41,355 nucleotides of DNA from Parcubacteria group bacterium. GTDB lineage: Bacteria > Patescibacteriota > Minisyncoccia > Phycocordibacterales > DATDWN01. This document shows, in pieces, positions 12,346 to 30,009 of this stretch (position 1 is its first letter; the number at the start of each line of letters is the position of its first letter). A model generated the notes under the pieces. The model had not been told where the DNA came from and searched no databases. It worked only from the letters and a program-made list of their open reading frames with translations. The stretch lies in contig JBKJHK010000003.1 of assembly GCA_046599035.1 (NCBI GenBank), positions 1 through 41,355 on the forward strand. Reading direction: 5' to 3'. The translations under genes and the position numbers were made by a program.

Positions 12346-13347
12346 TTAGAGTGGTAACTCAAAACTGCATTTTGTATGCTCTAAATCTTTCAAGAAGGTA
12401 CTGCAGAAAGCATCTCGCTCGGTATCTTTCAAGAATTTTGGAGCAAACACATTGAGCTTGTATGGAAACAGCGTGAACACCGCTTTGTCAGAATAAAACC
12501 TCACTCCGGCACCGAGACCTTCGGTGGTACGGGGTGTATTTTGATCAAAAACAAAGTTACCAAGAGAATAAAAAATTGCTTTCCCTTTGTATATACGAAC
12601 TGGTTCTACAACATGTGGGTGATGCCCAAAGATTACATCTGCACCATTATCAATCAGTGCATGCGCAATCTTCTCTTGAACAGGAGTTTCTGTGAGTGCA
12701 TACTCAGTGCCCCAATGAATATTTACCACCACAAAGTCATTTTCCGTACTCAATCTTTTTATGAGCGGATAAAAATCTGAAACTGGGATCGGGACTGTAG
12801 TTTCGTCGATGCCAATAAAAGCCACTTTTTTATCATTGATTGTCTTAATGATATAACTCTTCTCGAGACTCCTGTCTCCCATGAAATCAATCTGAGCTTC
12901 AGTAAGATATTTCTTCGTACTTTCAAACCCGACTCGATAGCAGTCAAATGCATGATTATTAGCAATCGTCACCATTGTAATACCGATACTTTTGAGGCGT
13001 TGTGGTGTATCGCTTCCAAACTGGAAGTTGTAGGCTTTCTCTTGGCACTTGGCCCTATCCATCTCGACGATCGGACCTTCGAGGTTTGCAATCGTAACAT
13101 CAAAATCTTTTATGAGATCTCTGTCCTTTTTTATATACTCAAACGGATCTCTTTTTTTGTTTACAATAATGTTGCGCACTCCTCGATCGAACATCACATC
13201 TCCAAAATTAAGAATTCCAATTGATTCTTTTTTAACAAGACCTACAGATTGGAGAGATCTAACTATGGTTTCATTCTTATAAAGGAATAAAAATACAATG
13301 AGAAAAATAGCAATACTCATACACATGAAAAGAATGGCTTTTTTCAT
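12346..13347 (-). CDS. CapA-family protein (PGA_cap metallophosphatase-like)
   Basis: 333 aa with one N-terminal TM segment. Motifs: GDVMFDRGV, ANLEGP, ANNHAFD, NIHWGTEY, GHHPHVVEP and YSLGNFVFDQ. Confidence 0.9.
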   Translation of the reverse strand: MKKAILFMCMSIAIFLIVFLFLYKNETIVRSLQSVGLVKKESIGILNFGDVMFDRGVRNIIVNKKRDPFEYIKKDRDLIKDFDVTIANLEGPIVEMDRAKCQEKAYNFQFGSDTPQRLKSIGITMVTIANNHAFDCYRVGFESTKKYLTEAQIDFMGDRSLEKSYIIKTINDKKVAFIGIDETTVPIPVSDFYPLIKRLSTENDFVVVNIHWGTEYALTETPVQEKIAHALIDNGADVIFGHHPHVVEPVRIYKGKAIFYSLGNFVFDQNTPRTTEGLGAGVRFYSDKAVFTLFPYKLNVFAPKFLKDTERDAFCSTFLKDLEHTKCSFELPL

Positions 13348-13388
13348 TAGTATACTTTTTCCTTAAATCATTATAATTTTTAATCTTA

Positions 13389-14009
13389 CTATTTATACCA
13401 CTGTCGATACCAGTCCTGCATTTCTCGAATTTCCTTTGACTGTGATTCGATAATATTTTTTGCTAACTGCTGCATTTCCGGACGCTTGGTACCCGATTGA
13501 AGCATCTCTGTCATCATGATTGCCATCTGATGATGAGGAATCATTTGTTCAATAAACATCTTATCAAAATCAACATTAGTTTCTAATGCTTTTATGTCAT
13601 CTCCACTTCCATTATGTATTCCTCCTCCTGACATCATTCCACCTCCCATCATAGTTGTACTTCCTTGAGGGACATCTTCCCCAAACCAATTTTTATACCA
13701 TACGTTCATATCCTGAATTTCTTTCGTCTGGCCTTCTATAATTGCAGTGGCAAGAGTTTTGATCTCTGTACGTTTTGATTTTTGAAGTGCAAGTTGTGCC
13801 ATCAATACAGCTCCTTCGTGATGAGGAATCATTTGCTCAATGAAGTGCTTATCGATATTCCCCATCATCTGATTATTGTTTCCATTCATCATTCCATAGC
13901 CGCCATTTCCGTACCCAGAAAACATAGTTGAAGTGAAAAGCATTGCGAGTAGTACTCCAACGACAATTCCTCCGATTCCGTAGGTTATTTTATTGTTTTG
14001 ATTGTTCAT
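13389..14009 (-). CDS. DUF305 domain protein with two HH repeats and Met/Gly-rich linkers
   Basis: FIEQMIPHHEGAV and FIEQMIPHHQMAI repeats, one N-terminal TM segment, and Met-rich stretches (GYGMMNGNNNQMMGN and TTMMGGGMMSGGG). Confidence 0.9.
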   Translation of the reverse strand: MNNQNNKITYGIGGIVVGVLLAMLFTSTMFSGYGNGGYGMMNGNNNQMMGNIDKHFIEQMIPHHEGAVLMAQLALQKSKRTEIKTLATAIIEGQTKEIQDMNVWYKNWFGEDVPQGSTTMMGGGMMSGGGIHNGSGDDIKALETNVDFDKMFIEQMIPHHQMAIMMTEMLQSGTKRPEMQQLAKNIIESQSKEIREMQDWYRQWYK

Positions 14010-14067
14010 ATTTTTTTATTTTAACTAACAATTTATAATTTTACTAATATTCAACCAATCTGTAATT

Positions 14068-14274
14068 TTACACTTCCGTGAGTGTATATTTTGTATTTTT
14101 GAAATAACCACTAATAAAATCAATTCCAATATGTTCTTTCATTTCTACCTGGGCTGTGCCGGTTGCAATATTAACATTGGCAGAAACCACACCTTCTATT
14201 TCTAACAACATTTCTTCTACATTGTGAGCGCACCCACCACAACTCATTCCGCTTACTTTATATGTATGTATCAT
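14068..14274 (-). CDS. copZ: heavy-metal-associated (HMA) domain metallochaperone, CopZ-like
   Basis: 68 aa with a GMSCGGC metal-binding loop in a ferredoxin-like pattern. Confidence 0.9.
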   Translation of the reverse strand: MIHTYKVSGMSCGGCAHNVEEMLLEIEGVVSANVNIATGTAQVEMKEHIGIDFISGYFKNTKYTLTEV

Positions 14275-14285
14275 AATAATTTTTA

Positions 14286-16433
14286 TTATATTTCTATTAA
14301 TTCCTTCTCAGCTCGCTTCAGGAGCACTGCATTTACTGCCACAATAATCGAGGATATGCTCATGAGGAGCGCCGCAAACTCCGGACGAAGTGAGATGCCA
14401 TAAGATGGATAGAGGACACCAGCGGCAACTGGGATTGCAAGAACATTGTAAATTGAGGCCCAGAAAAGATTTTGCTTCATTTTGCGAACTGTGGCTTTAC
14501 TCAAACGGATTGCCCGTAATACATCTGCGGGGTCAGATTTCATGAGAACTACTTTTGCAGTTTCAATAGCTACATCAGTACCCGCACCAATAGCAATACC
14601 AATGTCGGCTGTAGCAAGAGCGGGAGCGTCGTTTACCCCATCGCCGACCATTGCCACAAACTTACCTTCATCTTGAAGCTTTTTAACATACTTTGCTTTG
14701 TCCTCTGGCATGACTTCAGAAAAAACTCGTTTAATACCAATCGCGTTTGCGACTGCCTCTGCTGTCTGCTTGTTATCTCCTGTGATCATCGCCACTTCAA
14801 TACCCATTTCATTCAATCTCTCAATCGTTATTTTTGCGTTTTGTTTTATGGGATCAATGGCACCGATAACAGCTGCAATTTTTCCGTCAACTGCAAGGAT
14901 CATGATCGTTTCTCCACGCCCGAGGAATTCGGTGATTTTAGATTCAAGAGATCCAAGTATTACATTACTTTCTTTCATAAGCCGAGCAGTACCGACAAGC
15001 ACTTGTTTTCCATCCACGACTGCTTTCACTCCAAGTCCAGAGAGGTTTTCAAATTTTTCAATTTGAGTCGGCATTTCAAGTTTTCTTTTTTTCAGTTCTT
15101 CCAAAATCGCATTACTAAGTGGATGATTTGATTTTGTTTCCGCTGCAGCAACGAGTTTGAGCGCCTCATTTTCATCAAATCCTTCCGCCACAGCTATGGA
15201 AGTCACTTTCGGTTTGCCCTCAGTGAGCGTCCCTGTTTTATCCAGTACTACTGCTTGAATTTTTGCAGCTTGCTCGAGTGTCGTAGCATCCTTAATAAGA
15301 ATATTATGTTTAGCGCCAAGACCTGTGCCGACTGCAACTGCAGTCGGTGTAGCGAGCCCAAGAGCATCAGGACAGGCGATCACTATTGTAGAAATAGCAA
15401 ATGTGAGGGCAACCATAAACGAAGCTCCGAGAACAAAATACCAAATTCCGAATGCGAGAAGCCCCCCGCCGACAGCAACAATAACCAAATACTTTGCAAA
15501 TCGATCTGCCAGCCTTTGTCCGGGAGCTTTAGAATTCTGTGCCGTCTCTACCATCTTCACTATCTGAGCGAGTGCAGTGTCGTTGCCCACTTTTGTCGCT
15601 TTAAATCTAACCGAACCACTTTGGTTAATTGATCCTCCAATAACTTTATCGCCGATACCCCTTAGCACAGGCAATGATTCTCCAGTAACAAGTGACTCAT
15701 CAATAGATGTTTCTCCTTCAGTAATTTCACCATCGACAGGAACTTTGTCACCCGGCTTTAAAATGACAATATCTCCAAGAAGAACTTCAGCAGTCGACAC
15801 AAGTATTTCTTTGCCATCTCGAAACACTCTCGCTTGAGGTGGCACCAAAGCAAACAGGGCTTGCAGGGCATCGGTCGTGCCACGGCGTGATTTCATTTCC
15901 ATCCAATGCCCAAAGAGAACAAAGGTAACGAGCATCGCCGCCGCTTCGTAAAATGAATCACTGCTTCCTTGAAAGGTTAGAAACACACTAAAGGCATAAG
16001 CGGCCGTAATACCGACAGCGATAAGCACTGCCATATTAAGTACTCGCGCTTGAAATGCTTTATATGTTGAGTAGAGAAAAATCCAGCCGGAATAAAAGAA
16101 GACTGGGGTGGTAAGAATAAAAAGAAGCCATGGGACAGAAATCGGTGATGGGAGCATGAGGCCGAATATTTTCTCACCGAGTGGAGAATACGCGATGATC
16201 GGTAGTGTAAAGACGAGCGCAACAAAAAATTTGTTGCGTATGTCAATTTCCATGAGCTTGGCCATCTCTCGCCCTGCAAGTCCACCATGTTCCATACCCA
16301 TACTCATAGTCATGCTCATTTTGAAACGTTGCCAGAATGTCATTTCGGCTACAGGTTTCATGGTGTGGTCTTCATGACCTGAATGCTCAGTAGGTGCGAC
16401 TTCTTTATTATGTTGTGAGTGATCGTGATTCAT
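14286..16433 (-). CDS. P1B-type heavy-metal ATPase, CopB-like, with a His/Met-rich N-terminus and an atypical CPD transmembrane motif
   Basis: 715 aa with DKTGTLT, GDGVNDAPAL, YN(x)4P and MSISS. The N-terminus is MNHDHSQHNKEVAPTEHSGHEDH...MSMTMSMGMEH. The TM motif reads IACPDALGLATP, and the codons TGT CCT GAT were verified by hand. Confidence 0.95.
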   Translation of the reverse strand: MNHDHSQHNKEVAPTEHSGHEDHTMKPVAEMTFWQRFKMSMTMSMGMEHGGLAGREMAKLMEIDIRNKFFVALVFTLPIIAYSPLGEKIFGLMLPSPISVPWLLFILTTPVFFYSGWIFLYSTYKAFQARVLNMAVLIAVGITAAYAFSVFLTFQGSSDSFYEAAAMLVTFVLFGHWMEMKSRRGTTDALQALFALVPPQARVFRDGKEILVSTAEVLLGDIVILKPGDKVPVDGEITEGETSIDESLVTGESLPVLRGIGDKVIGGSINQSGSVRFKATKVGNDTALAQIVKMVETAQNSKAPGQRLADRFAKYLVIVAVGGGLLAFGIWYFVLGASFMVALTFAISTIVIACPDALGLATPTAVAVGTGLGAKHNILIKDATTLEQAAKIQAVVLDKTGTLTEGKPKVTSIAVAEGFDENEALKLVAAAETKSNHPLSNAILEELKKRKLEMPTQIEKFENLSGLGVKAVVDGKQVLVGTARLMKESNVILGSLESKITEFLGRGETIMILAVDGKIAAVIGAIDPIKQNAKITIERLNEMGIEVAMITGDNKQTAEAVANAIGIKRVFSEVMPEDKAKYVKKLQDEGKFVAMVGDGVNDAPALATADIGIAIGAGTDVAIETAKVVLMKSDPADVLRAIRLSKATVRKMKQNLFWASIYNVLAIPVAAGVLYPSYGISLRPEFAALLMSISSIIVAVNAVLLKRAEKELIEI

Positions 16434-16436
16434 AAA

Positions 16437-17006
16437 TTATGTATGTGAAGTTAAGTTACCTACTGTCGAGAGTTTTCGTTTTGAAAAATAAAAGTAAACC
16501 ATAAAACTTACTATTGCTGCGAAAAAACACCAGACAGACACAAATGAAACCGAATAAAACCAGTATGCTGTGAGTGCCGAAAAAAATACTAGAACTCCGA
16601 AAATATTGATTATCTTTTTACTAGAGAAGAAACAACTAAGAATAGTTGCTGAAAAATAAAATCCTAATACCCAATAACCATAGAAATGTGAATTATTATA
16701 GGCAATGCTTTTATTAATTATTTCCGAAGTAACTAGAGATAGCGTATGAGAATAGAGAAGGTATCCTCCGACTACGATCCCAATAAGCTGAAATACGTAC
16801 AAGACTTTTTTCCGCCAAGGCTCTGTTTCTAGTGATCCTATTGCAAACGGAACAAAAATCGACCATACCACAAATGCAAACAATGAGAATGCATAGATCA
16901 TTACTGCATTGAGTATTGTGGAATGCCAACTAAATGAGAGCCAGACGAACCCTTCAATCAGTTGCTGGATACCAAAAAGCAGTGGGATCATTGCTGAGAA
17001 ACACAT
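16437..17006 (-). CDS. hypothetical polytopic membrane protein
   Basis: About 190 aa from ATG 17006 (MCFSAMIPLLFGIQQLIEGFVWLS) with 5-6 TM segments. The longer track ORF would overlap the DUF2933 gene. Confidence 0.6.
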   Translation of the reverse strand: MCFSAMIPLLFGIQQLIEGFVWLSFSWHSTILNAVMIYAFSLFAFVVWSIFVPFAIGSLETEPWRKKVLYVFQLIGIVVGGYLLYSHTLSLVTSEIINKSIAYNNSHFYGYWVLGFYFSATILSCFFSSKKIINIFGVLVFFSALTAYWFYSVSFVSVWCFFAAIVSFMVYFYFSKRKLSTVGNLTSHT

Positions 17007-17010
17007 ACTA

Positions 17011-17238
17011 TTATTTGTGAATGGAAGTAGAATCTCTTTCCATTTTATTATTCGTATCCTTAGAATCGTGTGAAATGCCATGTTTTCCATGTATAAATAA
17101 GTGCATGAAAAGACAACCGAATAGAAATGTAAAAGGTAAGTACGGAAATACATGCTGTCCATGATCGATCACAAGATATATTCCAATGACCACAAGAGAG
17201 ACAATGAGTACCCAACGTATTGTGTTGTTATTTTCCAT
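17011..17238 (-). CDS. DUF2933-like small membrane protein
   Basis: MENNNTIRWVLIVSLVVIGIYLV...FLFGCLFMHLFIHGKHG. The C.LMHLFMHG-type motif is typical of DUF2933 proteins found in metal-resistance loci. Confidence 0.7.
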   Translation of the reverse strand: MENNNTIRWVLIVSLVVIGIYLVIDHGQHVFPYLPFTFLFGCLFMHLFIHGKHGISHDSKDTNNKMERDSTSIHK

Positions 17239-17254
17239 AATTTTAAGCTCGTTA

Positions 17255-17476
17255 TTAAACAATCTCACCCTTCTTTTCGAGCATTATGTGGTGCATAGTA
17301 CTTACCGTAAACCAAATAGCGATAAGCATCAAAAGGCCAGAACAAAATAGCCAATGCTCTCGTGTGACACCTCACACAAGCGCATCTTCACTCATCGTTG
17401 CTCCTACAATAGCGGAAACAATACCGGCAAACCCAACAACCATACTTAAGATGTGCAAAGTTTTTGAGATTTTCAT
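17255..17476 (-). pseudogene. small two-TM ORF interrupted by one in-frame UGA (pseudogene or recoding candidate)
   Basis: Codon-by-codon hand translation gives MKISKTLHILSMVVGFAGIVSAIVGATMSEDALV*GVTREHWLFCSGLLMLIAIWFTVSTMHHIMLEKKGEIV. The UGA lies at 17372-17374, inside a 9-bp hairpin. Confidence 0.5.
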
Positions 17477-17485
17477 AGTGCTTTT

Positions 17486-17767
17486 TTATTTATTTGATAA
17501 TGTGTAAATTCTAATTAATTCTTTAATGGCTTTCTCGTCTTCACCTTTAGTTTGCATTTTATTCTTTACGTGAGTACGAAGATGATTCTCTAAAAGAAAG
17601 CTCTCGAGGCTTTTCAATGATCTTTCAATAGAACGAGATTGCTCCAACAGGGTTGGGCAATACTCTTCTTTTTCAATAGCTTTAGTGAGACCATCGACTT
17701 GACCTCGAATTATCTTTGCTCGATGGATAGCTCTACTTTTTAGTTTTTGGTCTACTGGAGAGTGCAT
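17486..17767 (-). CDS. CsoR/RcnR-family metalloregulator with an RcnR-type H-C-H-H ligand fingerprint
   Basis: 93 aa with His2, Cys37 (EEYCPTLL), His62 and His66 (ENHLRTH). The C-to-H spacing of 25 and the H-to-H spacing of 4 match RcnR. Confidence 0.9.
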   Translation of the reverse strand: MHSPVDQKLKSRAIHRAKIIRGQVDGLTKAIEKEEYCPTLLEQSRSIERSLKSLESFLLENHLRTHVKNKMQTKGEDEKAIKELIRIYTLSNK

Positions 17768-17814
17768 ATTTTATATATGAGTTAATAATCTTAGATTATC
17801 GACCTTTCATATAG

Positions 17815-17834
17815 TATATACCCCTATACCCTAT
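17815..17834. promoter_or_regulatory. candidate RcnR/CsoR-type operator
   Basis: TATATACCCCTATACCCTAT is a C/G tract flanked by an AT-rich inverted repeat (TATA-C4-TATA). It lies about 50-65 nt upstream of the regulator ATG. Confidence 0.45.
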
Positions 17835-17896
17835 CTTGTAAATAGATATGACTGTGTCTACTTGAACTTAGTATTTTCTAAATCTCTTTCACAACT

Positions 17897-17926
17897 AAAA
17901 ACCCTTGGTTCAAAGCCAAGGGTTTT
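17897..17926. terminator. intrinsic terminator separating the two metal operons
   Basis: AAAAACCCTTGG-TTCAAAG-CCAAGGGTTTTT lies directly after the RND pump stop codon. Confidence 0.65.
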
Positions 17927-17941
17927 TAGTTTGCTAATTTA

Positions 17942-20900
17942 TCAATTGATATTATCACTCTTGTGTAGAACTCCACGAATCCATTTGCGAGCACGAATGA
18001 ACATATCAGGATGCATACCGACAAAATAGAATACCGCAGGAGTTAAGAATATTGAGATAATAGTAGATGACACGAGTCCACCAAATATCACAACTGCGAG
18101 TGGGTGGAGTAATTCTTTACCCGGCTCTTCTGCTGCTAACATAAGAGGAATGAGGGCGAGAGCGGTAACCATAGATGTCATGAGTACTGGCACCAGTCTG
18201 TCTATCGTTGCTTCGACTACAACCTCTTTTGTAAGTTTACCAGCTTCTCTTACTTTACTTAGGCATCGTTCGATCAACAATATTCCATTACGAGACACGA
18301 TACCCGCAAGAGATATGAATCCAACAGTATGGGCGAGATTGATCACTCCCCCAGTTAGCCAGATAGCAATAATTCCACCAATAAAAACAGTTGGGATGTT
18401 CAACATGATCTGTAGTACAATTGGAATTTTTCGAAAGGCATAGAACAATATTCCAAAAATTAAACCGAGTGCAATGACAAACATCAATGCGAGACGAGTA
18501 CTATTTTCCTTTTGACTTTTGTATGTCCCTTCGTAGGATATAGCAATACCCGTTTTCAACTGTTTTGTATCCATTATCTTTTTTACATTTTCAACTGCAC
18601 CAACAATATCCTTACCTTGATAATTTGCAGTGACATTCATTACTCGTTTACCTCCTTCATGACTATATTTATTGCGACCACCCTCTATTCTGATATCCCC
18701 AGCATCAGAAAGCGTATCGACTGATTCGATTGGTAACGATAAATCACGGAGTGCAGTAGCGCTACCTTTTGAATTCTGATCAAACCGAAGCACTACATTA
18801 ATACGAGCACCTTCTTTCTGAACTTGACCAATTTCTTTCCCAAGTAAGCCCTCTTCGAGGGCATCGGCGACACGAGCGACAGAGACACCGTTTTCACCAA
18901 GTCTATTAGTATCGAGATAAATTCTAAATTCAGGGACAATCACCTCTTTTTGAATTTGAGGATTTTTTACACCATCTTGCTTTGCTAATTCGACCTTGAT
19001 GGTTTCGGCAGTTTCTTTCATCGCCCCTAGATCATCACCGAATACTTTCATGACAATAGGCGCTCTTACCCCGGACAGAGATTCTTCTACTTTATGCGTA
19101 ATTGGTTTTCCAAGCCCATAATCAGCACCTTTATAGAGGTCTAAAATCCCCTGTATCTCTTTCGACAAATCGTCTATTTTATTTTCGAGTCCAGGTTCAA
19201 AGATTACTTGTATCTCGCTCGTATTTGCACCACTATCATGAGGATCGGCCCCGGCACGCCCAGTGATATGGCTTACACGCGCAACACCTTCAATGTTTCC
19301 TATTTCTTTTTCTAAAATAGACGCAAAGGTATTTGAGGTATTGAGATCTGTTCCCGTAGGAAGCGTGACCGAGATAACAAGTGAGTTTTCATTAAATGGC
19401 GGAATACCTTCTTTTCCTGCAAACGAATAGAGTCCGACTGCGACAATAAGGGAGATTAATACTCCCAAACTAAGCTTCTTTATGTTATTGATGCTCCAGT
19501 AGATATGTGGGGTTATTTTTGTTTTTAACCATACGACCAGTTTTGTTTCACCTCGTTCGTTTGCCTCTATATTTTTTAATAGCAGTGCCGATAACGCTGG
19601 TGTAAGAGTGAGTGAAACTATAAGCGATGCAACGAGAGATATCAGATACGCAATACCGATTGAGGAAAGTAGCTTACCTTCGACATCTGGGATAAAGAAT
19701 ACTGGTAAGAAAACCACAACAACCAGTAATGTTGCATAGACGATTGAATTTCTGACTTCGACTGAAGCATTGAATATGACATCCTTAAATGGGGTGCTGA
19801 GTCCTTTATTCTTCCACTCTGTTAACCGATGGTGGATATTTTCTACATCAACAATAGCATCATCCACGAGCTCGCCGATAGCGATGGCAATACCACCGAG
19901 GGTCATTACATTAACCGACACTCCTATAAACTTAAATATGATTGCGCTGACTAGAATTGATACTGGAATAGCTGTGAGTGTAATGAGTGTAATTCTCCAT
20001 CTCATGAGAAAGAGTGAAACAATCAATATCACAAGCAGAATACCTTCAGCAAGGGCTTTTTTTACATTACTAAGTCCAGAATCAATAAACCACTGTTGAC
20101 GGAAAAGATCATTTTGAATTTTAACACCTGTAGGCAAGCTTTTACCGATTGTTACAAGCGCTTCATCTACCGACGTCGTAACTTTTAGTGTTTCTGCATC
20201 AGGTTGACGAGAAATACGCATGATTACACCAGGCTTCCCGTCTATCGTCGCAGCTCCACGAACAAGACTCGGACCTTCAATGATTGCTGCTACGTCCGCA
20301 AGCCTGACAGTTCCTCCAGCTTTATCTTTTCCGACTACTACATTTTGTAGATCTGCAATTTCTCGAGGTGCAACCATAATACGGATTGGATACTCTTTAT
20401 TTTTCTCAACCAGAAGACCTCCACTTTTATTATTAAGTATAGGCTCAAGTGAACCTGCAATATCTTCGACACCTATACCTAGACTTTTCATCGCAGTGGC
20501 ATTCATTTGAATCTGCCATTCCTTTACATCTCCACCTAAGACGATGATGTCAGATACTCCGGTTACACGCAGTAGTGCTGGACGTACCGTCCAATCAGCA
20601 AGCGTACGCAAATCCATACCTGACATATTTGGATCGTCCGATGTTACTCCGATCCACATTACTTCACCTAAAATTGACCCCACAGGACCCAACACCGGTC
20701 GAGCGCCGTTTGGCAACTCTAATCGTGATAGTCGCTCTTGGATAATTTGTCTATTGCGAAAAATATCCGAACCCCATTCAAATTCTGCATTTACAATTGC
20801 AAGCCCAAATGAAGCAGTGCTGCGAACACGGGTCACACCAGGAGCTCCTGATACAGCAGACTCCACAGGAAAAAGTATCAGTTTTTCTACATCTTCAGCA

Positions 20901-21070
20901 GACATACCTTCACCTTCAGTAAATATAGCAACAGTAGGTTTATTAATGTCTGGAAGGACATCAACCTTCATAGTGCTAAAGCTCCAAATACCTCCTATAA
21001 CGACGATAAGTGACAGTAAAACTACGATTCCTGTATGGTCGAGGGACCATTTGATTATTTTATTGAACAT
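17942..21070 (-). CDS. RND efflux pump, heavy-metal-efflux (HME) family, CusA-like
   Basis: 1042 aa with 12-TM RND architecture. The TM4 signature GGIAIAIGELVDDAIVDVENIHHRL closely resembles the CusA [25 protein letters not shown] segment as I recall it. Confidence 0.95.
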   Translation of the reverse strand: MFNKIIKWSLDHTGIVVLLSLIVVIGGIWSFSTMKVDVLPDINKPTVAIFTEGEGMSAEDVEKLILFPVESAVSGAPGVTRVRSTASFGLAIVNAEFEWGSDIFRNRQIIQERLSRLELPNGARPVLGPVGSILGEVMWIGVTSDDPNMSGMDLRTLADWTVRPALLRVTGVSDIIVLGGDVKEWQIQMNATAMKSLGIGVEDIAGSLEPILNNKSGGLLVEKNKEYPIRIMVAPREIADLQNVVVGKDKAGGTVRLADVAAIIEGPSLVRGAATIDGKPGVIMRISRQPDAETLKVTTSVDEALVTIGKSLPTGVKIQNDLFRQQWFIDSGLSNVKKALAEGILLVILIVSLFLMRWRITLITLTAIPVSILVSAIIFKFIGVSVNVMTLGGIAIAIGELVDDAIVDVENIHHRLTEWKNKGLSTPFKDVIFNASVEVRNSIVYATLLVVVVFLPVFFIPDVEGKLLSSIGIAYLISLVASLIVSLTLTPALSALLLKNIEANERGETKLVVWLKTKITPHIYWSINNIKKLSLGVLISLIVAVGLYSFAGKEGIPPFNENSLVISVTLPTGTDLNTSNTFASILEKEIGNIEGVARVSHITGRAGADPHDSGANTSEIQVIFEPGLENKIDDLSKEIQGILDLYKGADYGLGKPITHKVEESLSGVRAPIVMKVFGDDLGAMKETAETIKVELAKQDGVKNPQIQKEVIVPEFRIYLDTNRLGENGVSVARVADALEEGLLGKEIGQVQKEGARINVVLRFDQNSKGSATALRDLSLPIESVDTLSDAGDIRIEGGRNKYSHEGGKRVMNVTANYQGKDIVGAVENVKKIMDTKQLKTGIAISYEGTYKSQKENSTRLALMFVIALGLIFGILFYAFRKIPIVLQIMLNIPTVFIGGIIAIWLTGGVINLAHTVGFISLAGIVSRNGILLIERCLSKVREAGKLTKEVVVEATIDRLVPVLMTSMVTALALIPLMLAAEEPGKELLHPLAVVIFGGLVSSTIISIFLTPAVFYFVGMHPDMFIRARKWIRGVLHKSDNIN

Positions 21071-21078
21071 ATTATATC

Positions 21079-22803
21079 CTATTCATCATGACCGTGAGGC
21101 TGGCTTTCGTCTTGGACTTCTGTTTTTTTCTCTGATGGAACTATTTGTGGGGTAGCATTGTCTGTCGCTTTTACTTGCATACCATCTTTCATATCAGAAA
21201 TCGGACGAGTTACGATACGATCACCATCTATTAATCCTGTAGTGATTTCGACTGTATCACCAAATGTTCTCCCTGCAGTTATTTCTTTTGATAGCAACTT
21301 ATTTTCTGCTGTCACTGTCCACACACGAGTTTCACCCTCATCACTCCAGAAAATTGCAGTGAAAGGTACTACTGCTGTTGTAGCACCTGTATTACTTGGT
21401 ATGACTCGAACAGATGCATGTACAGGCCAGTCTGTAGGTTCGGTAAATTGTGCATCTGCCATGTATGAGCCGTTTGTATCGAGTGATACACCTACGCCAA
21501 TAACTTTAATTTTAATCTTAGTATCCAAGAATCCCGGACGAACCACAGTGAGCATATCGCCAGATTTTGGGGCGATTGCATTGCTTGGAATGCGGAACCG
21601 TATCAATTTTTCCTTATTGCTCGTTCCATTTATTGAAGCGAGTGTGTCTTCGGGTCGTACAAATTCTCCAACTCGCTTTGCAATAGTTGAAATAGTCCCA
21701 CTTCGTGTTGCCACTATTTCTAAACCTCCTGTGAGGCCACCTACCACACTGTTATACGAAGCTTGTTTTGCTATTACTTCTGCATTAGCTAGTGCAAGAT
21801 CTTTTTCAAGCTGAATGATTTCTGCATCAATCTCTTGGTTCTTAGCCACGATATCTTGATTTTTCCCGGCAATTTCTTGAATCTTTACGTCATTATCTAC
21901 AAGCGATTCTTTGTATTCTTTCAATGTAGTAACAAATTCTTGTTGTTCAGTCGTAACAACAGACTTAAGATTAGCAAGTACCGTTGAGTCCAAGTCTCCG
22001 TCTGTTATTGTTTCTGAGAGAAGTTTTACTGTTGCATCAAAATATGCAAGTCCGCTTACCTCAGGAACAAGCTCCTTGTTACTTAGATCTTTTAAGGCTT
22101 GGTGAATTTTTTCAGGATAGCTGTTTCTACTTGAACCGAAAAAACCTACATTCCATCTCAAATTAACTAAGGAATTTATGTTTGGGTATCCACTATTTGC
22201 TGAAATTGTGGGATATATTTTTGATATTGATCCTTGGAGCACTATCTGAACGTTACTCTTTTTTGTTTGAGTAAGAGAGTTAGTGTTACTTCCAAGATTG
22301 GAAGTGGAATAAGAATTTTTTAGATTAGAATAGGAATCTTTTAACGAGTTTAATTGTTCTATTTTCTTTTGATTGAATACTATGGTTGCTTGGGCCTGTG
22401 CTTTTGCGCGCACAAGCTCTTCTGACTCTGAAGCTATAGCTTGGACGATATCTGCTGTTTTTGGTGGAGCAGAAAGCTTACCCAAGGCTTGACCTTGGTA
22501 TACTTTTTGTCCGATTTTCACATTCCACTCTGCAATTGTTCCTTCACGCTTTGGTTGGACGTTTACATCATTGGCTGAGAGTATTTCTCCAGACCACGAA
22601 ACACCAGAGCCGATATCGAGAGTGTTTTCAGGTGTAGTTGTTTGTCCGATCGTTAGTACGGATACTTTCGGATAATTATTTTCATCGGATAGTAGATGTG
22701 TTTGTATAGTATCCTTACTTGAAATTTTTTTATATCCAATAGCGCCTCCCACGATAAGCACAGCTACAAGTACACCTATAATAAGAAGTTTGTTTTCTTT
22801 CAT
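21079..22803 (-). CDS. RND/MFP periplasmic adaptor subunit (HlyD-like), oversized, with a His-rich C-terminal tail
   Basis: 574 aa with an N-terminal TM segment, a lipoyl-like motif (GQKVYQGQALGKLSAP), a very long Ser/Asn- and coiled-coil-rich insert, C-terminal beta-barrel segments and the tail QDESQPHGHDE. Confidence 0.85.
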   Translation of the reverse strand: MKENKLLIIGVLVAVLIVGGAIGYKKISSKDTIQTHLLSDENNYPKVSVLTIGQTTTPENTLDIGSGVSWSGEILSANDVNVQPKREGTIAEWNVKIGQKVYQGQALGKLSAPPKTADIVQAIASESEELVRAKAQAQATIVFNQKKIEQLNSLKDSYSNLKNSYSTSNLGSNTNSLTQTKKSNVQIVLQGSISKIYPTISANSGYPNINSLVNLRWNVGFFGSSRNSYPEKIHQALKDLSNKELVPEVSGLAYFDATVKLLSETITDGDLDSTVLANLKSVVTTEQQEFVTTLKEYKESLVDNDVKIQEIAGKNQDIVAKNQEIDAEIIQLEKDLALANAEVIAKQASYNSVVGGLTGGLEIVATRSGTISTIAKRVGEFVRPEDTLASINGTSNKEKLIRFRIPSNAIAPKSGDMLTVVRPGFLDTKIKIKVIGVGVSLDTNGSYMADAQFTEPTDWPVHASVRVIPSNTGATTAVVPFTAIFWSDEGETRVWTVTAENKLLSKEITAGRTFGDTVEITTGLIDGDRIVTRPISDMKDGMQVKATDNATPQIVPSEKKTEVQDESQPHGHDE

Positions 22804-22827
22804 AGGTAATAAATATTGGTCTAGTAA

Positions 22828-23007
22828 TTACTCGTCATGTCCATGTGGCTGGCTCTCATCTTGGATAGGGGTATGCTCACCCGTAGTTTCATGAGTATGA
22901 TCTGTGTGACCATCTGATGCAGGATTAGTTCCCGGTCTTAAGATAAAAAATGCAGCACCAATTGCAAGGATAATGAGAACAGAAACAATAATAAGATTCT
23001 TTTTCAT
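22828..23007 (-). CDS. 59-aa membrane-anchored His-rich peptide
   Basis: Below the track cutoff. Hand translation is MKKNLIIVSVLIILAIGAAFFILRPGTNPASDGHTDHTHETTGEHTPIQDESQPHGHDE. The last 11 aa are identical to the adaptor C-terminus. Confidence 0.65.
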   Translation of the reverse strand: MKKNLIIVSVLIILAIGAAFFILRPGTNPASDGHTDHTHETTGEHTPIQDESQPHGHDE

Positions 23008-23082
23008 AAGTTAGTTTAAGTTAATAGTTAATACATACCAAAAAACCTATTGTGTTTGCAAAGGTTAATATAAATCATTAAG

Positions 23083-23457
23083 TTAAAACGACTTAGAGTT
23101 AAGAATGCCTCTTGAAAAAAGTAATGTGTATAGATTAAATAATCGAGGTGGTGAGCCTTCGGTGAGAGAAGATAGCTTTTGTGTTCGTTTCAACAGTAAA
23201 GATAGACTAATGACGGAGTTGGCAAAAAAACCAGACATCATTAGTACAAGGATAAATCCTAACTGTGTGTTATTTCTTGCTGTTGTAGTAAATGTAGATT
23301 CATGACATTCAACTGTCGATGATTCGTAATCATCGACTTTTTGACTATGTGCGTTGAATTCTAATGAGTTACAGGAAGATAACAAGAAAACAAACGAAAC
23401 CAAAATAGTTATCGGAAAAATTAAACTTAATATTAATTTTTTATGGTTTATAAACAT
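23083..23457 (-). CDS. hypothetical protein with a lipoprotein-type signal (LLSSC)
   Basis: 124 aa with an N-terminal signal and lipobox-like LLSSCNS, plus one more hydrophobic segment. No family recognised. Confidence 0.45.
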   Translation of the reverse strand: MFINHKKLILSLIFPITILVSFVFLLSSCNSLEFNAHSQKVDDYESSTVECHESTFTTTARNNTQLGFILVLMMSGFFANSVISLSLLLKRTQKLSSLTEGSPPRLFNLYTLLFSRGILNSKSF

Positions 23458-23491: not shown

Positions 23492-23962
23492 TCAAATACT
23501 TAAAGAATTTAGTTTTGCTTTCATCTGATCAATTTGTGATTGCTGGCTTGAGAGAATATCTTTACATAATTCTTTTAATTCAGAATCCTCTACAGGTGCT
23601 TTTTCGCACATAAGAATTGCACTGGCGTGGTGAGTAATCATCGATTTTAAAAACTGTCTATCCGAAATACCGGTTTGCTGTCTGATTAAAGTAAGAAAAA
23701 TAATTAATAGTAGGACGCTACTGGCAATTATAAAGGTATTCCATTTTTTGTTATAATACATAGCCCTCATAACAAAAAGCTCAATAATCACCATTGGAGC
23801 TGTCATCAAGCCTGCCATATAAAACTGGTTATAATTAATCAAAACATTGGCAAATGTGTTAACCATTGCATACATAAAAACAAACATTGATATAAACGAC
23901 AGTATAACCATAACGAGCAAATTACGATACTGCTTACTATTCATTGAATTTTCCATTTCCAT
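23492..23962 (-). CDS. DUF305 domain membrane protein
   Basis: 156 aa with three TM segments followed by FLKSMITHHASAILM, a DUF305 HH motif. Confidence 0.8.
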   Translation of the reverse strand: MEMENSMNSKQYRNLLVMVILSFISMFVFMYAMVNTFANVLINYNQFYMAGLMTAPMVIIELFVMRAMYYNKKWNTFIIASSVLLLIIFLTLIRQQTGISDRQFLKSMITHHASAILMCEKAPVEDSELKELCKDILSSQQSQIDQMKAKLNSLSI

Positions 23963-23997
23963 AAAATTAATTGTTAGTTAATAATTAAATTACTTCC

Positions 23998-24339
23998 TTA
24001 AAGGAAATATACTGCTAGGGCACTGCACCCGAATAAAAGTCCAATATCTCGATAGACTTCATGAAACTCATGTCTACTTGAAACTACAAGAACACCTAAA
24101 AGATGTGTAGCCGCTAATACTGCAGCTATACCGGTAAAATAACCACTTATAAGCCACGCTCCAATAAAGAGATCTCCTACTGCTGTCCCGAGCATGAAAG
24201 ATCTGGCAGACAAAAGATATCTAGAAAACCATTTCGGCAACATGTGGGTCCACTTATCTTTATCTTTTAGAATCAAAACACCTGTTAGAACAAAAGTTAT
24301 TCCGAGACCGATTCTTAAAATAAGTATTGGGAGTTCCAT
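23998..24339 (-). CDS. small 4-TM membrane protein, DoxX-like
   Basis: 113 aa. The topology and the N-terminal LRIGLGITFVLTG pattern resemble the DoxX family. The assignment is tentative. Confidence 0.5.
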   Translation of the reverse strand: MELPILILRIGLGITFVLTGVLILKDKDKWTHMLPKWFSRYLLSARSFMLGTAVGDLFIGAWLISGYFTGIAAVLAATHLLGVLVVSSRHEFHEVYRDIGLLFGCSALAVYFL

Positions 24340-24345
24340 ATTATT

Positions 24346-25281
24346 TTAATGCATCATTGCTCCTCCTGATTGATTCGTTTGTCCCTTAGCCACATTTACC
24401 ACAAAGTCAGAGGTAATAATATTTCCTTCGTGTTGGAACTGCGAGAAAAGTTTATAATTTCCGGCTTCAGGAAACGTAATCTCGAAGTTAACTTTTCCTG
24501 TTTGAATATCAGTAAGCTTTTGGGTTGCATGAGCATGAATGAACTGAAGATCACTTTCTCGCAGAACAACAGTGTGTCCAAGCGCCCCTAAATACTTTTC
24601 TAGATTTGTGACAGATTTTCCGTCTTTTTTAATTTCAAAGTCAAATCCTGTTGATTTTCCTGATTCGATAGAAGGCAGGGCTGAAACTAAGCTAACCTGA
24701 TACCTGTCAAATATTTTACTCGTAGTGGTGTCTCCAATGGATTGTGGTTTGTAATTTGCCTGACTTCCTACTCTTATGTCTTCGGATATAATAACTGGTA
24801 ACTTAGTGCCATTTTGGTCCATTTGACTTGTGGTTGGAGTAAAGTCTGCAAAAATGCGGTAATCTCCATCGGATGGTAGAGTGAGGTCGGAAAAAGCAAA
24901 TTCTCCTGTTGTTTGATTAAATTCCGGATGTACATGCTGGAAGTTAGCAAGGTCTTTTCGGACAATTATAAAATGCATACGTTTCTCATGGACAACATCA
25001 AGATTTTTTAAAGTATTTCCTTGATCGTCAATAATTGAGTATGTGAAGCTCGTAGGAGTATTGGGTGCAAAGCTTTTTATATCAGCATTAGATTTTATGC
25101 AATAGCTTCTGTGACTTTGGATTGGCATCGTATCAATCAGTGTGCCACCTGACGAACAATAAACCTTGCCCTGATCTTTAGTGAAGACTTGTGGATTTTT
25201 ATCCGACTTATTTAAAGTAAATATTCCCCCTGCGACTATAACTACTACTAAGATAATTCCTATAAGTATTTTTTTGTTCAT
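24346..25281 (-). CDS. secreted or anchored protein with two His-motif beta-sandwich-like modules (putative metal binding)
   Basis: 311 aa with an N-terminal TM/signal segment. The repeated motifs MHFIIVRKDLANFQHVHPE and LQFIHAHAT are each followed by a GDY/GNYK.F beta-strand pattern. Confidence 0.6.
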   Translation of the reverse strand: MNKKILIGIILVVVIVAGGIFTLNKSDKNPQVFTKDQGKVYCSSGGTLIDTMPIQSHRSYCIKSNADIKSFAPNTPTSFTYSIIDDQGNTLKNLDVVHEKRMHFIIVRKDLANFQHVHPEFNQTTGEFAFSDLTLPSDGDYRIFADFTPTTSQMDQNGTKLPVIISEDIRVGSQANYKPQSIGDTTTSKIFDRYQVSLVSALPSIESGKSTGFDFEIKKDGKSVTNLEKYLGALGHTVVLRESDLQFIHAHATQKLTDIQTGKVNFEITFPEAGNYKLFSQFQHEGNIITSDFVVNVAKGQTNQSGGAMMH

Positions 25282-25292
25282 GTAATTATAGT

Positions 25293-25682
25293 TTAGTTTT
25301 TAAATTCAACTTCAAACGGGTACATCCCCATCCCACAGGTCCCCTCTAGAGTAGCTACTTTTTGTGTACCAATATCAATATCAGTCGAGCCAGTTTGCGG
25401 AAGCACCTGGCTTATATCCATGCTCGGAATACGGACCGATGAGGAACAGTCGAATGTTCCGCTCGTATCGAATCGTATGACTGTAGGAATGCCTGCGCGA
25501 GCGATGCTCTTTCGTGGCTCGTATCCGCTTTTAGCATTAATGGTGATGATCTGTTTTCCATCGACGATAACAACATTATTTACATTTACCACCGGCTCTG
25601 TGCTTCCAGCATTTTTTGTAAGCATAAAAGCTCCTCCAATGAGAACGCCTGCTACAATTATTGATATAATGGTTGATTTCAT
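25293..25682 (-). CDS. cupredoxin-like small secreted protein with a C...CGMGM motif
   Basis: 129 aa with an N-terminal TM segment. The pattern GYEPRKSIARAGIPTVIRFDT...FDCSSSVRIP...GTCGMGMYPFEVEF is seen in cupredoxin-type proteins encoded beside HMA/TauE genes. Confidence 0.65.
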   Translation of the reverse strand: MKSTIISIIVAGVLIGGAFMLTKNAGSTEPVVNVNNVVIVDGKQIITINAKSGYEPRKSIARAGIPTVIRFDTSGTFDCSSSVRIPSMDISQVLPQTGSTDIDIGTQKVATLEGTCGMGMYPFEVEFKN

Positions 25683-25745
25683 AGATTTTCTTTATTAGTT
25701 CCTCAGCTCAGAAATGGTAAATAACCTGGACTCTGCGCCTTTGGT

Positions 25746-26171
25746 TCAATACCATTTATTATATACTAATCGAGTGAGGAAAAAAACAATGGGAACTATA
25801 ATGATCATTTGTAAAATTGGTGTAAAACCCACATCAAGAAACGGGATGGTGGGCATGAGCTCGTTGTAGGACCATCTTTCAGTTCCTAGTCCATAAAGCT
25901 CAATTATTACAGCAAAAATTAGACTAACAACCAAAAGAATAGTTAATTTTCCTTTTGAGAAATACTGAAACCAATTCCATCCTCTAAAAACAAAGGACAT
26001 TATAAGATATATCAAAGTGATTATCACAACATCTCCTAGGGTTGCCGCCAAGCACATCAAAAAACTGGACAAAAATCCATCATACCCATTATACAAAAAC
26101 ATTTGTCCGTTCTCCCAAATTAAATTGAGAAAAAATGAAGTTATAAGTGCTGTCGCAATCGTTTTTTTCAT
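25746..26171 (-). CDS. hypothetical 4-TM membrane protein
   Basis: 141 aa from ATG 26171 (MKKTIATALITSFF). The longer track ORF would overlap the upstream gene. Confidence 0.55.
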   Translation of the reverse strand: MKKTIATALITSFFLNLIWENGQMFLYNGYDGFLSSFLMCLAATLGDVVIITLIYLIMSFVFRGWNWFQYFSKGKLTILLVVSLIFAVIIELYGLGTERWSYNELMPTIPFLDVGFTPILQMIIIVPIVFFLTRLVYNKWY

Positions 26172-26184
26172 ACTGAATATTAAT

Positions 26185-29549: not shown

Positions 29550-29553
29550 AAAA

Positions 29554-29817
29554 TTACTTTCGCTTAAGGCGATATACTTTTAATATTTCATCAATCGGTT
29601 TCTTTTGCTCTCCTTTCTTTATCTGGCTTATAACACAGGTACTCAAATGATTCTCCATCAGTGCATCCTCTATACCTGAAAGAGCCTGCTTGACTGCCGA
29701 TGTCTGAGTAATCACATCAATGCAGTATGCATTTTTTTCTATCATGTCCTGCAGTCCACGTACCTGCCCTTCTATAATCTTGAGTCGCCGAATTAATTTA
29801 GTTTTATGTTCGTTCAT
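29554..29817 (-). CDS. csoR: copper-sensing repressor CsoR (x-C-H-C fingerprint)
   Basis: 87 aa from ATG 29817 (MNEHKTKLIRRLKIIEGQVRGL) with Cys32, His57 and Cys61. The longer track ORF would read through the operator. Confidence 0.92.
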   Translation of the reverse strand: MNEHKTKLIRRLKIIEGQVRGLQDMIEKNAYCIDVITQTSAVKQALSGIEDALMENHLSTCVISQIKKGEQKKPIDEILKVYRLKRK

Positions 29818-29818
29818 A

Positions 29819-29853
29819 GACCCATTATACCCCCATGGGGTATAATGGGTCAA
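29819..29853. promoter_or_regulatory. CsoR operator (perfect 15-3-15 palindrome) overlapping the csoR-copA promoter
   Basis: GACCCATTATACCCC-CAT-GGGGTATAATGGGTC (29819-29851) contains the ATACCCC/GGGGTAT core. On the minus strand, TTGACC (29848-29853), an 18-nt spacer and TATAAT (29824-29829) lie only 6 nt before the ATG. Confidence 0.75.
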
Positions 29854-30009
29854 CTGATTTTGTGTTAATCCTCTAGACTGCAATCATACTGAGTTAGAAC
29901 TAAAAAATCCTTACTAATTAATAATTTTTAGTTGAATTTTATTCTCGGTGCCACATTAGAAGATGTTAGAACTGTGCTTGAGAGAAAAAATGCTATGCCA
30001 ATTTCATAC

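Follow-up and report, generated by a model that had tools for sequence, protein, structure and literature searches.

The residue that closes the CPx motif is the classic handle for predicting the substrate of a heavy-metal pump, and the locus described here raises the question of which metal is moved when that residue is an aspartate. It lies on a stretch of 41,355 nucleotides from a Parcubacteria group bacterium (contig JBKJHK010000003.1 of assembly GCA_046599035.1, positions 1 to 41,355; hereafter the window) and comprises a P1B-type ATPase of the CopB lineage with a Cys-Pro-Asp (CPD) motif (715 amino acids; 14286-16433, minus strand) and, at the head of the same operon, a repressor of the CsoR/RcnR family. 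A preliminary description of this DNA had combined the aspartate with an RcnR-like set of regulator ligands to propose a divalent-metal specificity (Ni, Co, Zn or Cu(II)), a claim that we find unsupported by the pump residues, the relatives of the regulator and the content of the regulon. The operon is probably a Cu(I), and probably also Ag(I), efflux and resistance operon of a soil bacterium from the candidate phyla radiation (Patescibacteria), in which a CopB-type pump with a CPD motif is placed under a CsoR-type repressor. We examined the order of the genes, their sequence motifs and how far these are conserved, phylogenetic position, the operator with its conservation, and the genes that make up the regulon in different genomes; which metal is moved and in which direction, how the operon is repressed and derepressed, and what Asp356 does are inferred from these.

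Copper-type sequence features of the CPD pump

The pump contains the Pfam E1-E2_ATPase and Hydrolase domains, without an HMA domain, and scores 589.8 bits against the TIGR01511 copper-translocating model (cut-off 397), while the ZntA equivalog models fall far below their cut-offs. Against solved structures it reaches 570 bits with Legionella pneumophila CopA (LpCopA, 3RFU) and 540 bits with AfCopA, compared with 274.5 for the Co pump 7QBZ and 273 for ZntA.

The CPx motif, C354-P355-D356, is located at 15366-15374 on the minus strand and reads TGT CCT GAT (15374-15366) in the context atc gcc TGT CCT GAT gct ctt ggg (I-A-C-P-D-A-L-G), just as it had been read initially; CPD is invariant in an alignment of 47 homologues. 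The position of D356 is that of C384 in LpCopA, or of the His of CopB, in other pumps. Residue positions in the pump were inferred from sequence alignment to LpCopA, and by this alignment M148, E189, E205, D337, C382, P383, Y688, N689, M717 and S721 of LpCopA are all kept in the window pump, with C384 alone changed (to Asp). The equivalents of M148, E189, E205, D337, C382, Y688, N689, M717 and S721 are invariant in the pump family. We take the listed residues to be those of Cu(I) entry, binding and exit in the Gourdon and Andersson structures.

Both partner motifs for which the preliminary description had suggested a check are present. Y662-N663-x4-P668 (I-YN-VLAI-P; 14430-14450, minus strand) aligns with LpCopA Y688/N689, M691-S-I-S-S695 (MSxSS; 14349-14363, minus strand) aligns with LpCopA M717...S721, and each is found in 120 of 120 homologues, MSxSS being replaced by MSAST in a deeper CPD representative (P0124) and in a Deinococcus protein. 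The second core transmembrane helix carries G175-H-W-M-E-M180 (GHWMEM; 15894-15911, minus strand), a CopB-lineage signature around the entry-site Glu E179, which corresponds to LpCopA E205.

The N-terminus is rich in His and Met, as first described. A His-rich tail (16365-16433, minus strand; MNHDHSQHNKEVAPTEHSGHEDH) with seven His in residues 1-23 varies in length and sequence among homologues, and the membrane domain is preceded by a Met-rich motif, M39-x-M-x-M-x-M-G-M-E-H49 (MSMTMSMGMEH; 16287-16319, minus strand), in which M39, M41, M43, M45, G46, M47 and H49 are invariant across the 47 aligned homologues. MxM motifs provide soft-metal ligands for Cu(I) and Ag(I).

Among representatives at 50% identity, the top relatives of the pump (48-61% identical) all carry CPD, followed by CPC CopA-like (~45-50%) and CPH CopB-like (42-44%) proteins. 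In a neighbour-joining tree of 88 sequences (640 columns, 100 bootstraps, with ZntA and a P1B-4 pump as outgroup), CPD and CPH pumps form a clade with a bootstrap value of 93, apart from the CPC pumps; the CPH clade is recovered at 85%, and the tree leaves the monophyly of CPD pumps alone without resolution. The grouping of CPD with CPH pumps results from lineage-specific columns common to both, namely H176, W177, M180, G185, L316, A320, G324 and A666, of which H176, W177 and M180 differ in CPC pumps. D356 is the only membrane-site residue special to CPD pumps relative to CPH pumps.

P1B-3/CopB pumps, for which we used the definition CPH, (G)YN(x)4P in the penultimate helix, MSxST in the last one and a His-rich N-terminal metal-binding region of 30-100 residues that has no CxxC HMA domain (PMC5552934), are today considered to transport Cu(I), and the group has been merged with P1B-1 (PMC10654040). 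The preliminary description had asked whether CPD pumps form a clade and had raised the prospect that they nest inside Cu(I) CopB clades with identical partner motifs. CPD is near-universal among close relatives and groups with the CPH pumps, and YN(x)4P is common to both, while the last-helix motif differs (MSxSS versus MSxST). Given the shared CopB columns and the retained Cu(I)-pathway residues, the pump is, by its sequence, a CopB-lineage enzyme with one His-to-Asp swap plus MSxSS in place of MSxST.

Conservation and distribution of the CPD motif

The preliminary description had itself named a sequencing or assembly error at CPD as a way in which its reading might fail. Two public soil-metagenome runs that are independent of each other (from different studies, of 2021 and 2024) yielded contigs that show 0 differences over 15200-15550 and are also identical over the regulator and the operator. 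CPD occurs in 120 of the 120 best protein-cluster matches (73-100% identity) and in 79 of 80 species-representative loci. The ATPase open reading frame is intact and has all its catalytic motifs. A premature TGA in a neighbouring small open reading frame, discussed below, does indicate some decay in the operon; for error or decay at CPD itself we found no support. Excluded by the two-run contigs and refuted by conservation, a CPD motif born of sequencing error, misassembly or a decaying gene is vanishingly improbable.

A set of six peptide patterns, MTMSMGME among them, picked out at least 599 stretches from the species genomes of GTDB, and at least 573 species genomes, mostly of Patescibacteria, encode a close relative of the pump. 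A translated plasmid search further revealed relatives of ~50% identity on plasmids of many cultured bacteria, and all seven plasmid pumps examined (from Rhodococcus, Nitrobacter, Ralstonia, Mycolicibacterium, Deinococcus, Pseudomonas pG20 and Croceicoccus) have CPD. Among the CopB-type pumps of Patescibacteria the CPD form dominates, and cultured soil and marine bacteria commonly carry it on plasmids.

Across many Patescibacteria classes the identity of the CPD pump is 67-81%, and the pump is also encoded in metagenome-assembled genomes labelled Bathyarchaeota, Micrarchaeota, Methanosarcinales, Bacteroidota, Ignavibacteriaceae and 'uncultured Gammaproteobacteria'. Either frequent horizontal transfer or mis-binning and mislabelling accounts for this spread.

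The initial view that the pump lies outside the current P1B subclass rules is only half right: in 2017 a survey of Rhizobiales had already named a P1B-3 subtype with CPD on the basis of three proteins, of Xanthobacter, Nitrobacter hamburgensis and Bradyrhizobium (PMC5552934). Besides this survey the searchable literature yielded nothing on the CPD motif, and no experimental characterisation.

A CsoR-family regulator with an N-terminal histidine

The regulator (93 amino acids; 17486-17767, minus strand) belongs to Pfam PF02583 (Trns_repr_metal, 63.4 bits). Counted on the sequence, its candidate ligands are H2 (17764-17762), C37 (17659-17657), H62 (17584-17582) and H66 (17572-17570), all on the minus strand, in agreement with the preliminary description, which took this H-C-H-H set for the fingerprint of RcnR. 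The set does match RcnR, but it is also the fingerprint of the CsoR of Thermus, and the regulator fails the RcnR model NF011613 (25.5 bits against a cut-off of 138). RicR, the second-best NCBIfam match, reaches 37.5 bits against a cut-off of 175. The best solved relatives are Mycobacterium tuberculosis CsoR (40.9 bits), a variant of FrmR (35.9 bits) and the CsoR of Thermus thermophilus (34.1 bits), and the regulator aligns with the Thermus protein ligand for ligand (H2/H5, C37/C41, H62/H66, H66/H70).

The Thermus CsoR represses copZ-csoR-copA, has its own fingerprint written as H-C-H-H, and responds in vitro also to Cu(II), Zn, Cd and Ni (PMC5057107). Its similarity-network cluster has been assigned to Cu(I) sensing (PMC8643695, PMC11672702) because its neighbours are CopA and CopZ and its second-shell residues are conserved. 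Second-shell Tyr and Glu residues have been linked to CsoR allostery (PMC11672702), and the window regulator has Y36 before C37 and E83 in a K-E-L-I segment, the Glu column being conserved in the locus regulators by alignment inspection.

Y-C...H...H is present in 118 of the 120 closest regulator protein clusters, with the N-terminus taking two forms. About 70 of the 120 clusters hold a 90-residue form that starts M-[LV]-[DN]-Q-K-L and is without an N-terminal His, and about 40, including that of the window, hold a 93-residue form in which a His at position 2 or 3 is nearly always found. The extra His thus looks selected in one sub-lineage and not essential to the clade.

Pairing with RcnA and a P1B-pump/CopZ neighbourhood serve as assignment criteria for RcnR and Cu(I) CsoR, respectively (PMC8643695). 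A neighbourhood of a copper P1B pump and CopZ is what we observe in the window operon, in its closest relative (L090) and in the 33 orthologous loci described below, and no RcnA-type Ni/Co exporter was found among the proteins scanned (the window operon and scanned representatives of the orthologous regulons).

A conserved operator within the regulator's promoter

Ahead of the regulator lies a sigma-70-like promoter (17813-17842, minus strand) with a -35 element TTTACA (17842-17837), an 18-nucleotide spacer and a -10 element TATACT (17818-17813). With 10 of 12 matches it is the top-scoring promoter-like site in 13300-23100, and orthologous loci have TTGACA at the position of the window's -35. 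The spacer is filled by the operator ATAGGGTATAGGGGTATA (17817-17834, minus strand; read 17834-17817), which overlaps the -10 and has two same-strand G tracts between ATA/TATA flanks, with TATA-G4-TATA contained in it.

ATAGGG-N4-GGGGTATA occurs a single time in the window (0 of 100 shuffles), and the exact motif is found once, just upstream of the regulator orthologue, in each of L002, L008, L016, L059, L061, L090 and L091. Of 26 further orthologous loci, identified by searching with the regulator, ~24 have this motif or one near-identical to it, and nearly all of the 26 show the arrangement TTGACA, ATAGGr-N4-GGGGTATA, N3, TAT.

The preliminary description had assigned a TATA-C4-TATA site at 17815-17834 to the type 1 class, in which AT-rich inverted repeats, spaced by 6-9 bp, flank one G/C tract 3-8 bp long (PMC3902906). 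The site is there, and its inner TATA-GGGG-TATA 12-mer matches this definition; the conserved 18-mer is wider, so that the fit covers the 12-mer only. Because of its two same-strand G tracts and the 11 bp between its AT-rich flanks (type 2 spacing), the 18-mer appears to be a hybrid site or a pair of type 1 sites that overlap. A classical palindromic ATACCCC-N3-GGGGTAT box is found with other C-H-H and C-H-C regulators that adjoin CPD pumps.

A weak match to TATAGGGGTATA at 22864-22875, considered as a second operator upstream of an operon for an RND permease and a membrane-fusion protein, has 2 mismatches and falls inside a small coding open reading frame. Matches of this kind are not above chance (5 versus 2.3 expected), and the candidate was dropped.

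The regulon in other genomes

A regulator-anchored sample comprises 26 loci, found with the regulator as query, and gene content was counted over 33 orthologous loci. The next pump downstream in the 26 loci is a CPH CopB in four, a CPD pump in four and a CPC CopA in two, with none within 7 kb in the remaining 16. All four CPH CopB pumps are of the classical type, with an HMBD domain, MSxST and either GHWLEM or GHYLEM. In the 33 loci, same-strand genes downstream of the regulator encode a 73-residue membrane protein (20 loci), a P1B pump or HMA protein (20), DUF302-YHS (17), a multicopper oxidase (14) and a DUF2933-like protein (12). In L090, whose pump is 94% identical to that of the window, the regulator and CPD pump are followed in the operon by, in order, an HXXEE protein, an HMA protein, DUF4396 and a multicopper oxidase.

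Viewed from the pump, the regulators upstream of CPD pumps are C-H-H proteins in 17 loci and canonical C-H-C CsoRs in nine, three of them directly adjacent; C-H-C CsoRs with palindromic boxes stand directly upstream of CPD pumps in L020, L027 and L057. CPH, CPD and CPC pumps thus behave as interchangeable cargo of one copper-type regulon, which argues against a special pairing of CPD with a Ni/Co sensor. An exclusive pairing of C-H-H regulators with CPD pumps had held in the first, pump-anchored sample and was refuted by the CPH, CPD and CPC pumps of the regulator-anchored one.

Copper-related neighbours recur on a wider scale. In 79 related pump loci we find a CPC CopA or HMA protein 43 times, CsoR 30 times, DUF305 19 times and a multicopper oxidase 11 times, with thiol-disulfide proteins also frequent. 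Among the plasmid loci fetched, the CPD pumps of Rhodococcus, Ralstonia, Deinococcus and Pseudomonas adjoin copper-associated genes: multicopper oxidase, CopC, CueP, four-helix copper-binding proteins, DUF305, DUF2933 and HMA.

A further kind of CsoR-family protein is seen upstream of CPD pumps in L014 (3184-3459), L028 (5457-5822) and L060 (250-558). These proteins contain C-x-C (SCTC or PCPC), have Tyr and Asp/Asn at the His and Cys/His ligand positions (C-Y-D, C-Y-N) and are preceded by palindrome-like boxes.

Weighing copper against other readings

Several points weigh against a conventional copper operon. The residue that follows the Pro offers a hard carboxylate ligand, and for Cu(I) an Asp is unusual; the position matches Glu309 in the PEGL motif of the Ca pump, an ion-binding Glu in Ca and Na/K pumps. 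An AlphaFold2 model of the pump built from 47 homologues (mean predicted local distance difference test score, pLDDT, 66.6, and <50 around the metal-site helices) was too poor to inspect the metal site and was not used for geometry. The searchable literature yielded no metal tests on any CPD pump or on this regulator clade. The operator has its G tracts on the same strand, like RcnR sites and unlike the CsoR palindrome, and the conserved His 2/3 of the 93-residue regulators suggests that a higher coordination number, of the kind seen in Ni/Co sensors, has been selected. With a canonical CsoR-CopA pair already in the genome, a second copper system needs a reason. Finally, the CPD pump belongs to a recurrent island on plasmids of Nitrobacter (L084), Ralstonia (L085), Mycolicibacterium (L086) and Croceicoccus (L089) that holds an MFS transporter, a phosphoketolase, an MBL-fold hydrolase, a thymidine-phosphorylase-family protein, a ribose-phosphate pyrophosphokinase (PRPP synthetase) and an ECF-type sigma factor; this context is without obvious metal genes and does not look like metal resistance.

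It is nevertheless rather unlikely that the Asp of CPD and an RcnR-like H-C-H-H sensor together make a divalent-metal system (Ni, Co, Zn, Cd/Pb or Cu(II)) of a subclass outside P1B-1 to P1B-7. D356 is invariant and therefore under selection, and a hard Asp ligand in the membrane is what ZntA needs for Zn(II). The recurrence of His 2/3 in the 93-residue regulators, the same-strand G tract with AT-rich repeat flanks, the broad response in vitro of a Thermus CsoR with the same fingerprint (PMC5057107) and the separate canonical Cu(I) system in the window also agree with a divalent substrate. Yet all Cu(I)-pathway and CopB-specific residues except D356 are kept, the invariant N-terminal motif is Met-rich, and Zn and Co signatures are absent: P1B-2 has CPC and, in its last two helices, a Lys and the Asp of DxG, and P1B-4 has SPC and HEGxT, whereas the window pump has N663 and M691 and neither SPC nor HEGxT. 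On the regulator side, the failed RcnR model, the lack of an RcnA-type partner among the proteins scanned and the ~70 of 120 homologues without the N-terminal His speak against a Ni/Co sensor, as do the CPH CopB pumps, CPC CopA pumps and multicopper oxidases found under the same regulator clade and operator and the C-H-C CsoRs that control CPD pumps in other genomes. A broader variant of the argument, that CPD pumps, which span hundreds of Patescibacteria species and plasmids from cultured Actinomycetota, Pseudomonadota and Deinococcota, are a large subclass whose membrane carboxylate alters substrate or mode (Cu(II) or a borderline divalent metal, or Cu(I) together with a proton required on the Asp) and that the His-bearing H-C-H-H regulator evolved a higher-coordination site to match, we also regard as unlikely. 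Distinctly unlikely, in our view, is a copper pump with a different job, one that supplies extracytoplasmic cuproproteins (multicopper oxidase, cupredoxin) or differs in affinity or rate, in parallel to CopA2/FixI-type versus CopA1 pumps. Such a division of labour would explain why a CPD pump coexists with a CPC CopA, as it does in the window and at numerous loci. In L090 the CPD pump shares its operon with a multicopper oxidase, 14 of the 33 loci have such a gene downstream of the regulator, and the two operons of the window, with distinct repressors and operators, are separately inducible. A metal-released repressor with a chaperone and DUF305 is, however, the usual layout of a resistance operon, and elsewhere this regulator controls CPH and CPC pumps. 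Most likely, the window pump is thus one more member of an already noted CPD variant, in a conventional CsoR-controlled copper-resistance operon, and the comparative sequence evidence most likely points to copper and not to a new metal specificity.

Accessory genes of the operon

The interval 13389-17842 (minus strand) is laid out as a single transcription unit, with gaps of 4-59 nucleotides between genes from the regulator to DUF305. It is insulated on its upstream side by an intrinsic terminator hairpin (17897-17929, minus strand), seen in the sequence at the end of the upstream RND/membrane-fusion-protein operon, whose RNA folds at -23.2 kcal/mol (z -5.86; 0 of 200 shuffles fold as well).

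A small membrane-protein gene of 73 codons (17255-17476, minus strand) starts 10 nucleotides after the regulator stop and is interrupted by an in-frame TGA (17374-17372), which is also present in the contigs of the two metagenome runs. The 73-residue product has two helices and the motif ...IWxxxxTxHHxMLEKxGEI, and matches no Pfam family; intact homologues follow the regulator in 20 of the 33 orthologous loci, and that of L091 has a Trp near the TGA position. The TGA apparently arose from TGG (Trp). An alternative genetic code was rejected because TGA ends 9 of the 43 window genes and so is a normal stop here.

Two further membrane proteins precede the pump. The first is a small DUF2933 protein (17011-17238, minus strand; start taken at ATG 17238; Pfam PF11666, 50.6 bits), and the second is a DUF6629 protein (16437-17006, minus strand; Pfam PF20334, 68.6 bits) that matches from profile position 35, has its likely start at ATG 17006 (MCFSAMIPLLF...) and is without ~30 N-terminal residues present in proteobacterial members. 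DUF6629 also adjoins or lies near the CPD pumps of the Nitrobacter (L084, 5009-5677) and Croceicoccus (L089, 1978-2664) plasmids, and an unannotated protein beside the Ralstonia CPD pump (L085, 5084-5734) looks similar to it by sequence. DUF6629 may be a conserved partner of CPD pumps.

Downstream of the pump, the operon encodes a CopZ-like HMA metallochaperone with GMSCGGC (14068-14274, minus strand; Pfam HMA, 50 bits), for which NCBIfam CopZ models are the best match though below their cut-offs, and a DUF305/CopM-family protein with Met/Gly-rich stretches (13389-14009, minus strand; Pfam DUF305, 146.8 bits; NCBIfam CopM, 114.3 bits against a cut-off of 90).

The second operon and the surrounding island

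The pairing of a textbook x-C-H-C CsoR with a CPC CopA in a second operon (27252-29817, minus strand), pointed out from the start, is borne out. The CsoR (29554-29817; PF02583, 90.6 bits) is followed by a CopA (27252-29549) with an N-terminal HMA domain, CPC and MALSS, and is preceded by a perfect palindromic CsoR box, ATACCCCCATGGGGTAT (29827-29843, plus strand; exact ATACCC-N5-GGGTAT), 10 nucleotides upstream of the likely ATG at 29817. The program-made open reading frame for this CsoR (29554-29883, minus strand) begins at a TTG and extends across its own operator, the CsoR box being translated as TPWGY; the real start is most likely ATG 29817.

Downstream of the CPC CopA, 23492-27234 (minus strand) encodes an HMA-DsbD_2 fusion, a cupredoxin-like protein, a DoxX protein and a second, short DUF305 protein. 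The stretch from 13.4 to 29.9 kb is a metal and redox island. Between the two operons, 17942-22803 (minus strand) encodes an RND permease (1042 amino acids), with AIGELVDDAIVDVEN in its fourth helix, and a membrane-fusion protein that ends in QDESQPHGHDE; an upstream 59-residue His-rich open reading frame (22828-23007, minus strand) ends in the same 11 residues. A CusA-type identity of the permease was rejected: it has 27.5% identity to CusA and no Met triad (S/T/E at M573/M623/M672), and therefore gives no evidence about the metal.

A model for regulation and transport

In the proposed mechanism, a CsoR-family tetramer without metal would bind the G-tract operator. As the operator fills the spacer and overlaps the -10 of the regulator's own promoter, the bound repressor would block RNA polymerase. 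Cu(I) at C37/H62/H66 would release the repressor. A fourth ligand, H2 on the N-terminal arm, would be optional and, as has been proposed for the CsoR of Thermus, may make the response broader or tune it. The allosteric signal would pass through the second-shell residues Y36 and E83. One transcript would then encode the regulator, the small membrane protein (a pseudogene here), DUF2933, DUF6629, the ATPase, the CopZ-like chaperone and CopM/DUF305.

At the pump, metal would be collected by the His tail and the invariant MxMxMxMGMEH segment, enter at M134/E179/D310, be bound in the membrane by C354, D356, Y662/N663 and M691/S695, and exit past E163. Asp356 would stand in for the His of CopB, or the second Cys of CopA, as the third CPx residue.

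Significance for the prediction of pump substrates

The debate over Cu(I) versus Cu(II) as the substrate of CPH CopB pumps was settled only recently, and CPD now emerges as a third natural variant and not a rarity of three rhizobial genes. Its cultured hosts (Rhodococcus, Pseudomonas pG20, Ralstonia and Deinococcus) make it easily testable. If the CPD pump moves Cu(I), as its context says, the site tolerates Cys, His or Asp, and annotation rules should not equate Asp with 'divalent'; if it does not, a new specificity class exists. Should the carboxylate prove to alter transport, the P1B scheme would gain a new class, and studies of selectivity a natural Cys/His/Asp series. The regulator clade and its 18-bp operator are now defined and together mark the copper regulon of these uncultured bacteria.

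Comparison with known systems

The regulator resembles several characterised proteins. Like the CsoR of Thermus thermophilus HB8 (3AAI), which regulates a P1B pump and CopZ, it has an H-C-H-H set and a Tyr before the Cys. Unlike that protein, its clade is mostly without the N-terminal His and has a same-strand G-tract operator; at a similarity of only 34 bits, the two belong to separate clades. With Escherichia coli RcnR it shares the H-C-H-H fingerprint and R-A-x-x in helix 1 (RAKI in the window, RASK in RcnR), and if Met1 is retained, as the usual Met-aminopeptidase rule would imply, His is second in the mature protein, again as in RcnR. It differs from RcnR in failing the RcnR model, in its CsoR second-shell Tyr and Glu, which to our knowledge RcnR does not have, and in its regulon of copper genes. 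The presence in one genome of two CsoR-family paralogues with different operators, each heading copper-related genes, recalls Mycobacterium tuberculosis CsoR and RicR, although RicR is x-C-H-C, whereas the window regulator is C-H-H and matches the RicR model far below its cut-off.

The pump resembles the CopB/P1B-3 proteins of Enterococcus hirae, Archaeoglobus fulgidus and Sphaerobacter thermophilus in its His-rich N-terminus without a CxxC HMA domain, its YN(x)4P and its GHWMEM, and sister genomes have CPH pumps under the same regulator clade and operator. It departs from them in having CPD and not CPH, MSxSS and not MSxST, and the invariant MxMxMxMGMEH segment, and it is without the HMBD (YTCPMHPE) domain that many close homologues carry. 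The L. pneumophila CopA (3RFU/4BBJ) is the best solved match, from which the window pump differs by Asp356, the lack of an HMA domain and CopB-type residues around the entry Glu. Of the features of CopA-type P1B-1 pumps it accordingly has YN(x)4P, MxxSS and a match to the copper-ATPase model, and lacks CPC and a CxxC HMA domain.

A named parallel is provided by the rhizobial CPD subtype (cluster VIc: Xanthobacter autotrophicus, Nitrobacter hamburgensis and a Bradyrhizobium sp.; Cubillas et al. 2017, PMC5552934), in which CPD, YN(x)4P and MSxSS are as in the window. The rhizobial, actinobacterial and Deinococcus CPD forms are ~100 residues longer and contain a CGxHC motif as well as a degenerate HMA-like fold that lacks CxxC, whereas a short His tail and the Met-rich motif characterise the window pump. 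The window pump and the Nitrobacter plasmid protein are ~49% identical, belong to the same CPD group and both have DUF6629 as a neighbour.

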